Assembly: GCA_040388985.1 (NCBI GenBank)
Contig: JAZKAU010000002.1
Location: forward strand, 52,570 to 116,569
Direction: 5' to 3'
Length of the DNA stretch: 64,000 bases
Source: Patescibacteria group bacterium
GTDB lineage: Bacteria; Patescibacteriota; Minisyncoccia; Phycocordibacterales; Phycocordibacteraceae
Numbering within the stretch: position 1 is the stretch's first letter; each line of letters starts with the position of its first letter. The notes beneath the pieces are model-generated. The model did not search any database and had not been told where the DNA came from. It saw only the letters and a program-made list of their open reading frames with translations. This document shows, piece after piece, positions 28,738 through 29,351 of this stretch. Position numbers and translations under genes: made by a program.

Positions 28738-29262
28738 TTGAATGGGGTTCTGGGAGGAGTGCGTGAGTGGTATAATAGGTTAGTGACTGAAAAATACCGA
28801 CGGAATGCAAATACCGCATGCAGGACCTGTCTGAAGCCAATTTATCGAAGACCATCTGAGGTAAAGTCTGGGAAGGTTTTCTGTAGTTCATTGTGCTACG
28901 GAGCGGCAAACCGCAAAGAGAAACCCTGCGTTATTTGTGGGAAACTTATTCTTGCTAGAGCAAATAAGAAGACTTGCAGCCGAGAGTGTGCTAATCGAAA
29001 CCGAGCAGGAATCAAGTACAAGATTGGGCGGCCGCGTGATAAGTCTAATACGATACGCACGATCAAGCTGCATCTCATCAATGAGCGCGGATCGGAATGT
29101 GAACGTTGCGGATACGACAAGCGAGAGATACTACACGTTCATCACAAAGACCGAGATCGCTCGAACAATGAGGTGTCGAATCTTGAGCTCATCTGTCCGA
29201 ATTGCCACTATGAGGAGCATTATCTGGAAAAAAGCTGGCTTGATGGTAGACTGACCTCCTAA
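28738..29262 (+). CDS. HNH endonuclease with N-terminal Cys-rich zinc-ribbon repeats (paralog of 4984-5478)
   Basis: CRTCL...CSSLCY, CVICG...CSREC then HVHHKDRDRSNNEVSNLELICPNCH HNH motif. Ends 4 nt before tRNA-Ser. Confidence 0.8.
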   Translation: MNGVLGGVREWYNRLVTEKYRRNANTACRTCLKPIYRRPSEVKSGKVFCSSLCYGAANRKEKPCVICGKLILARANKKTCSRECANRNRAGIKYKIGRPRDKSNTIRTIKLHLINERGSECERCGYDKREILHVHHKDRDRSNNEVSNLELICPNCHYEEHYLEKSWLDGRLTS

Positions 29263-29266
29263 AGAA

Positions 29267-29351
29267 GGAGAGGTGGCAGAGTGGTCGATCGCGTCGGTCT
29301 TGAAAACCGAAGTGCCGCAAGGTACCGTGGGTTCGAATCCCACCCTCTCCG
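29267..29351 (+). tRNA. tRNA-Ser (TGA)
   Basis: Type II tRNA. Acceptor GGAGAGG/CCTCTCC, anticodon stem TCGGT/ACCGA, loop CTTGAAA (TGA), long variable arm, T-arm GTGGG-TTCGAAT-CCCAC. Confidence 0.85.

Follow-up and report, generated by a model that had tools for sequence, protein, structure and literature searches.

To our knowledge, the literature has so far presented homing endonuclease genes beside transfer RNA (tRNA) genes as a rarity of a few phages, namely T4 with SegB and T5 with the F-Tfl enzymes, the latter belonging to the HNH family. Here we examine two genes for HNH proteins in a stretch of 64,000 nucleotides (nt) from an ultra-small Patescibacteria group bacterium (GenBank assembly GCA_040388985.1, contig JAZKAU010000002.1), which we call the window. 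Both genes adjoin the 5' end of a co-oriented tRNA gene, which is tRNA-Ser(UGA) for the gene that we call Ser-type and tRNA-His(GUG) for the gene that we call His-type. We consider it fairly probable (about 0.68) that they are two free-standing homing-type HNH cassettes of about 0.5 kilobases (kb), each dedicated to one tRNA gene, and that they represent a chromosomal, phylum-wide variant of the SegB/F-Tfl theme. The cassette is probably selfish.

Judged by analogy, the closest precedent is T4 segB, the gene of a free-standing GIY-YIG homing endonuclease that lies in the T4 tRNA cluster and recognises a tRNA motif (PMC2330249). During the maturation of tRNA-Arg its messenger RNA (mRNA) is severed after the last codon and before the stop codon, and it has been proposed that such processing lowers the level of the nuclease (PMC2330249). 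The genes studied here resemble segB in being free-standing nuclease open reading frames (ORFs) located directly upstream of a tRNA gene, and tRNA maturation is predicted to cut their mRNA between the last codon and the stop. Furthermore, the target would again lie in tRNA genes, and the nuclease gene and its neighbouring tRNA genes would be inherited together. However, SegB has the GIY-YIG fold, whereas the window proteins are HNH proteins and do not belong to the GIY-YIG class. In addition, segB is a phage gene in a multi-tRNA operon, with a distant promoter and a Shine-Dalgarno sequence inside a hairpin, whereas the Patescibacteria genes are chromosomal, are associated with one tRNA species each, and have their own -10 box and a predicted leaderless start.

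Regarding T5, F-TflI, F-TflII as well as F-TflIV are site-specific endonucleases, and their ORFs are found in the T5 region that holds the tRNA genes (Akulenko et al. 2004, cited in PMC2330249), and according to the account of them in PMC2330249 it was proposed that their expression is lowered by processing of the primary transcript. As far as that account goes, they resemble our genes in that the nuclease ORFs are located in a tRNA gene cluster, but they are phage genes and not single-tRNA cassettes in cellular genomes. We found no close sequence relation to them: the cultured-phage matches listed have 28-36% identity, and T5 is not among the 30 records listed.

HNH homing endonucleases have also been reported inside group I introns of Patescibacteria tRNA genes, specifically in tRNA-Asn at position 35/36 (PMC13011429). 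They share with our genes the phylum, the nuclease superfamily, the tRNA home and the anticodon-loop region of the breakpoint, but the HNH ORFs of the window are free-standing and lie upstream of an uninterrupted tRNA. That paper makes no mention of nuclease genes 5' of tRNA genes, and our other literature searches gave no description of a free-standing HNH-before-tRNA arrangement.

Architecture and linkage of the two HNH genes

A previous sequence-only reading of the window had described the Ser-type protein as a second Cys4-repeat HNH protein with the same architecture as the His-linked copy. The alignments of both families agree with this description, because in both of them two CxxC...CxxxC units are followed by a Cys4 HNH core with the pattern HH...N...N...CxxCH. 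The two window proteins share 32% identity (BLASTP E 1e-18), and a tblastn search found no third paralog in the 64-kb window.

That reading had also placed the stop codon of the Ser-type gene 4 nt before tRNA-Ser, which begins at 29267, and the sequence, ARAGORN and Rfam lead to the same result (the TAA at 29260-29262 and the tRNA are separated by AGAA). On the other hand, the start that it gave, at 28738, had to be corrected. The open frame does extend from 28738 to 29262 on the forward strand, but TTG 28738 is almost certainly not the true start and only an artefact of the open frame. The true start is probably GTG 28783, because the homologs begin there and many of them have an in-frame stop just upstream, and this gives a protein of 159 amino acids (aa). 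The apparent N-terminal extension reads as a translated tRNA stump, which is described in the next section, followed by a promoter box. Gene callers seem to have missed this leaderless GTG ORF abutting a tRNA in the window genome. In a large protein collection, the best match of the Ser-type window protein (28783-29262) shows 73% identity, and the His-type copy is present at 100% (P0121). In the case of the His-type gene the ORF and tRNA-His(GUG) overlap by 15 nt, and the 5' end of the tRNA encodes the final codons of the ORF (MAAIV*).

When the Ser-type loci were compared, the motif TGnTAnnnT was found before the start codon in 75 of 81, with a spacing of exactly 6 nt in 73 of these 75. The box is TGGTATACT in 60 loci, and the boxed loci start with GTG (63) or ATG (12). 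The sequence upstream of this extended -10 box is not conserved among the Ser-type loci compared. The same layout of box, 6 nt and start codon was found in 30 of the 32 occupied metagenome loci and also in the His-type loci, where 6 nt and ATG follow TGGTATAAT in L235, TGGTAAAAT in L237 and CATACT in the window (the L numbers are our designations of loci). Of these three, the two relatives show the layout more clearly than the window does. Since the extended -10 box is located only 6 nt before the start, the Ser-type mRNA is predicted to be leaderless. A scan of 28200-29800 with the sigma-70 consensus found no -35/-10 promoter; the relevant signal of the cassette is an extended -10 box without a -35 element, which was found by the comparison of loci.

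We scanned one genome per species, obtaining 259 relatives, and studied the best 80 loci. In all of the 79 complete Ser-type loci, which come from other Patescibacteria genomes, tRNA-Ser(UGA) lies downstream on the same strand, and the 80th locus is truncated by a contig end. The distance between stop codon and tRNA is at least -64 and at most +100 nt, with an overlap of ORF and tRNA in 24 of the 79. Taken with the stop codons of the window, 4 nt before the tRNA (Ser) and 15 nt inside it (His), this is a SegB-like geometry. The His-type ORF is followed by tRNA-His(GUG) at -15 to +32 nt in every locus examined, that is, in the window, L234, L235/L236, L237 and, incidentally, L140, and the flanking genes differ from locus to locus. 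As a control, we took the other tRNA genes of the same loci with enough upstream sequence, 297 in number. Only two of them have a member of the family in front, and both are tRNA-His; the remaining 295, which belong to 27 other anticodon classes in the same DNA, have none. As a rough estimate, given 9 tRNAs in 64 kb, one ORF would end no more than 20 nt from the start of a same-strand tRNA with a probability of about 0.003.

Therefore, with 79 of 79 Ser-type loci and all the His-type loci examined against 0 of 295 controls, the adjacency of HNH and tRNA genes is real and far from chance. This is what the sequence-only reading had argued from the repetition of the HNH-then-tRNA order, which it took for a functional or mobility link; it had named a lack of recurrence in related genomes as the outcome that would speak against the link, and the survey found a recurrent and partner-specific linkage instead. 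Of the two kinds of link, mobility is favoured by the evidence, because there are presence/absence polymorphism, clean orthologous insertions or deletions (indels), decayed copies and tRNA stumps.

An optional cassette and the stumps upstream of it

Independently of the HNH gene, we sampled metagenome sequences by a match to the identical 27-nt 5' half of one Paceibacteria-type tRNA-Ser. Among the tRNA-Ser(UGA) genes of this sample with at least 520 nt upstream, 33-34 have the HNH gene and 49 do not. Counted as non-redundant sites, 22 are full, 3 are partial and 40 are empty. None of the 8 tRNA-Ser genes of other anticodons with the same 5' half was occupied. Four fully identical tRNA alleles were found in both the occupied and the empty state. 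Decayed copies were found too: the ORF is partial in L085, L101/L191 and L107, and only its 3' end, encoding '...LEKSWL', is left in L133/L145 and L167.

Pairs of orthologous loci show the boundaries of the cassette. The empty locus L086 and the occupied locus L195 are collinear on both sides with about 80% identity, and the distance between the upstream terminator and the tRNA promoter is 46 nt in the former and 543 nt in the latter. L099 and L189 have 87% identity over 1970 nt, and the corresponding lengths are 77 and 506 nt. L156 and L097, which come from groundwater samples, have 99.66% identity over 293 nt; beyond this shared part, a native -10 stretch of 20 nt stands in one locus where the other has a cassette about 520 nt long, a difference other than a simple deletion. 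Two empty loci are each closest to an occupied locus and not to each other, and therefore at least two independent events have occurred; occupied and empty loci are interspersed. The cassette, of about 0.5 kb, is optional at its tRNA site. As expected of a free-standing homing endonuclease, it is present or absent at the same locus in homologous genomes, and the ORF is bordered by an upstream gene or terminator on one side and by an intact tRNA on the other, outside any intron or intein; Rfam, at its gathering score, gave no group I intron for the window or for the loci that looked interrupted. This does not correspond to an integrase island either, since the indel of about 0.5 kb holds only the HNH ORF and the leftovers are 5' stumps and not 3' repeats.

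These stumps are 5' fragments of another allele of the tRNA, located upstream of the cassette. The one in the window, GGAGGAGTGCGTGAGTGGT, matches in 19 of 19 positions the beginning of the tRNA-Ser(UGA) of L048, from tRNA position 1. The allele of this type begins GGAGGAGTGCGTGAGTGGTT, whereas the resident tRNA-Ser is different (GGAGAGGTGGCAGAGTGGT). The stump is fused to the -10 box of the cassette through a shared TGGT. Besides the 19 nt of the window, Ser-type stumps upstream of the cassette measure 24 nt in L035, 28 nt in L037 and 18 nt in both L052 and L080; among shuffled upstream sequences, anchored matches reach a length of 10 at the 95th percentile and 15 at most. His-type stumps of a different tRNA-His allele were found in L235 (2908-2944, 37 nt) and L237 (834-867, 34 nt); both end in the anticodon loop, and the HNH start codon follows them at 55-60 nt. 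No tRNA-like stump was detected upstream of the His-type cassette of the window.

Another group of loci, L087, L116, L123/L150, L163 and L175, has a 35-nt 5' stump of one tRNA-Ser(UGA) allele, which ends at anticodon position 35. A complete tRNA-Ser(UGA) whose sequence is of another type comes 16-330 nt further on (for example, L175 5280-5694 and L123 2465-2646). We considered group I introns for six tRNA-Ser matches that looked interrupted after CTTG, like the 35/36 intron of PMC13011429, but Rfam found none and a complete tRNA-Ser of another type follows, so that these are stumps. In L163 a 3' fragment of a third tRNA-Ser type lies after the complete gene. In L175 an ORF of 82 aa with a GIY-YIG match (5358-5606; Pfam PF01541, E 5e-16) lies behind the 35-nt stump, and its stop codon abuts tRNA-Ser(UGA). 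To judge from this match, an unrelated fold occupies the niche of the HNH cassette in L175, which is a case of convergence.

As the stump allele differs from the tRNA attached to the cassette, the tRNA would have been carried along with the cassette, which suggests that the incoming unit includes a complete tRNA. The stumps also suggest that the breaks fall between the D-loop and the anticodon loop.

Homologs with 40-48% identity were found inside the tRNA arrays of large phage-like contigs, ending at tRNA-Ser(GGA) in 6 cases, tRNA-Ser(UGA) in 9, tRNA-Pro(UGG) in 3 and tRNA-Ser(GCU) in 1. Relatives with about 30% identity were also found in cultured jumbo phages, where they lie in tRNA clusters or close to them and bear the annotation HNH endonuclease. 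The loci L201-L220 (IMG/VR contigs of 78-452 kb) have dense tRNA arrays, including a suppressor-like tRNA(CUA), with HNH genes of the family wedged between tRNA-Cys(GCA) and tRNA-Ser(GGA), and L201 has two copies.

Probable homing and the alternatives to it

Each cassette consists of an extended -10 promoter, 6 nt, a predicted leaderless GTG or ATG start and a protein of about 160 aa, in which two zinc ribbons, presumed to recognise DNA, precede the HNH nuclease; the ORF ends either where the tRNA gene begins or a few codons into it. If these are homing cassettes, the nuclease would cut cassette-free, sensitive tRNA alleles somewhere between the D-loop and the anticodon loop. The break would be repaired from a cassette-bearing copy, with the homology supplied by the tRNA side, and the upstream side would be joined by homology within a species and illegitimately between species. 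It would follow from this kind of repair that the resident tRNA gives way to the whole unit of promoter, HNH gene and complete tRNA, and a short 5' piece of the old allele may be left behind as a stump. The cassette would then persist vertically and would sometimes be deleted or decay, leaving an empty site. Transcripts that begin at the cassette promoter probably continue into the tRNA, and processing by RNase P would cut the mRNA at or before the stop codon, keeping the nuclease low, as was proposed for T4 SegB. It speaks for this reading that the nuclease function is maintained: in the 25 Ser-type sequences aligned, HH120-121, N129, N133, C138, C141, H142 and H146 are invariant, and the ratio of nonsynonymous to synonymous substitution rates (dN/dS) of the Ser-type gene is about 0.06, which indicates strong purifying selection.

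Several observations weigh against homing. The first is that tRNA sequences can be identical in occupied and empty sites, and therefore a carrier would itself contain any target confined to the tRNA, unless those empty sites are resistant alleles that lost the cassette. Thus, either the target spans the junction or the empty sites are such resistant alleles. Secondly, stumps were found in only about 5 of the 113 Ser-type loci. Furthermore, the guanine-plus-cytosine (GC) content of the HNH genes follows that of the host (r 0.88; slope of 1.1 for GC at third codon positions, GC3; 78 loci), and RuvX, a small membrane protein and orf33147 are often found nearby, so that the genes look like long-term residents. 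The identity of the HNH proteins is flat near 63% whatever the divergence of the hosts, which fits strong constraint as well as transfer. Finally, dN/dS is about 0.06 over saturated dS, a constraint as strong as in housekeeping genes. Selection, host-like GC, neighbourhood and the identity plateau fit a long-resident, mostly vertical element, and they also fit a domesticated host function.

Two further lines of evidence were discarded. The low GC of the window cassettes (45-47%, against 55% for the window) might have been taken as proof of recent transfer, but HNH GC tracks host GC across the 78 loci. A co-divergence test of the HNH gene against RuvX, orf33147 or tRNA identity was uninformative, being flat near 63%, because the variable sites are saturated.

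The domesticated function is the main rival. It supposes a host protein whose function is linked to the tRNA locus, such as the protection of the tRNA gene from invaders, its regulation or its maintenance; this protein would have been inherited vertically since an early Parcubacteria (Paceibacteria) ancestor and repeatedly lost by deletion. Domestication would account for the dN/dS of about 0.06 with saturated dS, for the host-matched GC and GC3, for the partly conserved neighbourhood and for the highly conserved architecture from promoter to start, and the deletion remnants show that loss does happen. Nevertheless, we consider it unlikely. Around 60% of closely related tRNA-Ser(UGA) sites have no cassette, the tRNA stumps of foreign alleles point to replacement and not to losses only, and the difference between L156 and L097 goes beyond a simple deletion. 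Moreover, an unrelated GIY-YIG nuclease is found in the same niche, relatives occur in phage tRNA arrays and, as a matter of general knowledge, there is no known host process that needs a nuclease for only tRNA-Ser(UGA) and tRNA-His.

It is much less probable that the protein is an RNA-guided or RNA-acting nuclease, with the adjacent tRNA transcript as its cofactor or guide, as in IscB and TnpB with an RNA at the gene end, or with a role in tRNA processing. The 3' end of the ORF does overlap a structured RNA gene, and there are weak NCBIfam matches to the HNH part of IscB. However, the match to IscB (NF040563) has 24 bits against a cut-off of 175 and covers the HNH core only, and the 159-aa protein has neither RuvC nor RNA-binding modules, so that we rejected an IscB-like nuclease composed of RuvC, HNH and a guide RNA. 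The fold matches are also with the HNH core only: the AlphaFold2 model of the Ser-type protein (predicted local distance difference test, pLDDT, 79), compared with the PDB by Foldseek, matched only the generic HNH cores of McrA and Cap5, and its zinc-ribbon part had no match. Besides, the tRNAs have the scores of ordinary tRNAs, and related genomes without the nuclease have the same alleles of them.

The least probable explanation, with hardly any weight left, is an incidental adjacency of HNH and tRNA genes that both gather in variable intergenic regions or in remnants of prophages or islands: tRNA genes are generally known as common integration sites and several tRNAs lie nearby in the window, but the partner-specific tRNA within 100 nt in 79 of 79 Ser-type loci and in all the His-type loci examined, against 0 of 295, refutes it, and the orthologous indels of only about 0.5 kb are too short for an integrase or other island genes.

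Going back to homing, we tentatively propose a wider picture, which we regard as possible and not as the likeliest outcome. In it, essential single-copy tRNA genes of Patescibacteria would be repeatedly overwritten by foreign alleles that arrive as a unit of nuclease and complete tRNA, with the conserved tRNA as the sole homologous anchor, by homology-facilitated illegitimate recombination. This niche would have been reached convergently by at least two nuclease folds that are unrelated to each other, HNH and GIY-YIG. The tRNA would come to be transcribed from the cassette promoter, and the nuclease would be throttled as RNase P processes the common transcript. If this is true, there is a phylum-wide route of tRNA-gene exchange driven by selfish nucleases.

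The strategy known from the phages appears here in the form of two large families on the chromosomes of a major bacterial phylum. Each family has more than 1000 clusters at 90% identity, one tRNA species and a fixed, compact expression architecture. If the homing mechanism is true, it explains a widespread Patescibacteria gene that is annotated only as 'HNH endonuclease' or 'hypothetical', and it predicts nucleases that recognise specific tRNA gene sequences. It would also mean that horizontal exchange of essential tRNA genes is possible through the replacement of alleles, and it would offer a natural system for the study of leaderless expression and of the joint processing of mRNA and tRNA in organisms that are difficult to grow.

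Protein family, further signals and neighbouring genes

The positions of the features in the window are collected in Table 1.

Table 1. Features of the Ser-type and His-type loci, in window coordinates
Feature	Position	Strand	Remarks
Ser-type HNH endonuclease ORF	28783..29262	+	159 aa plus stop; Pfam, PHROG, homologs
Zinc ribbon 1, Ser-type ORF	28819-28896	+	
Zinc ribbon 2, Ser-type ORF	28927-28989	+	
HNH (beta-beta-alpha-metal) core, Ser-type ORF	29098-29220	+	
tRNA-Ser(UGA)	29267..29352	+	no encoded CCA; ARAGORN; Rfam RF00005 58.8 bits
5' stump of other tRNA-Ser allele	28753..28771	+	19 nt, GGAGGAGTGCGTGAGTGGT
Extended -10 promoter-like box TGGTATAAT	28768..28776	+	6 nt upstream of GTG 28783
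Second -10-like box TGGTAGACT	29244..29252	+	in ORF tail, 14 nt before tRNA-Ser
His-type HNH endonuclease ORF	4984..5478	-	164 aa plus stop
tRNA-His(GUG)	4925..4998 by ARAGORN; 4925..4999 with encoded G-1 at 4999	-	Rfam 63.8 bits
-10-like hexamer CATACT	5485..5490	-	6 nt upstream of His-type ORF ATG

Both window proteins match the Pfam families HNH/HNH_3; for the Ser-type protein the matches are with HNH (PF01844, E 6e-6, 26.7 bits against a cut-off of 21.4) and HNH_3 (PF13392). A match to the PHROG family phrog_1271, 'HNH endonuclease' (E 2e-17), spans both ribbons and the HNH core. The features of the HNH (His-Me finger) superfamily are all present, that is, the beta-beta-alpha-metal core, the catalytic His, the Asn residues, the metal-binding His and the CxxC...CxxC zinc site. 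A profile search of PDB sequences gave only weak matches, with the HNH parts of a group II intron maturase and of McrA. The Ser-type protein has at least 1199 homologs with 60-73% identity, and the few of them with a source name are Patescibacteria. The His-type protein has at least 1271, nearly all of 164 aa. Most of the 25 His-type sequences aligned end in FMAAIV/FMATMV-type C-termini, which are the translated acceptor stem of tRNA-His. A profile search of cluster representatives found 49 clusters at E<=1e-30 and 1819 at E<=1e-10, numbers that inform on the size of the family only and not on genomic context.

Regarding the transcription of the tRNA, the idea of the sequence-only reading that tRNA-Ser might have no promoter of its own found no support, since -10-like boxes lie in the ORF tail and are enriched in occupied sites. 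In the window, TGGTAGACT may be a promoter belonging to tRNA-Ser itself. The motif TGnTAnnnT ending 4-16 nt before the tRNA was found in 25% of the occupied genome loci, 12% of the occupied and 12% of the empty metagenome loci, and 2% of the shuffles. In L144, L162, L171, L183 and L195 the tail of the HNH ORF crosses an apparent tRNA promoter (TTGAAA ... TATACT), which is also present in the empty orthologue L086, and the -10 region of this promoter resembles the cassette box TGGTATACT.

Three neighbouring genes were found near the HNH-tRNA-Ser unit in many of the 80 genome loci: a RuvX/YqgF-like gene with a C-terminal extension (window 27574-28413, reverse strand) in 57, the gene of the small membrane protein (28264-28731, forward strand) in 34, and orf33147 (33147-33728, forward strand) in 47. 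These neighbours have only 30-45% identity, against about 63% for the HNH protein.

Upstream of the His-type start, at a distance of about 45-100 nt, there is a conserved motif, TTCTGRATATCCACAG (window 5524-5541, reverse strand), which is also present in L234, L140 and L237 with differing flanks. It may mark the left end of the His-type cassette.

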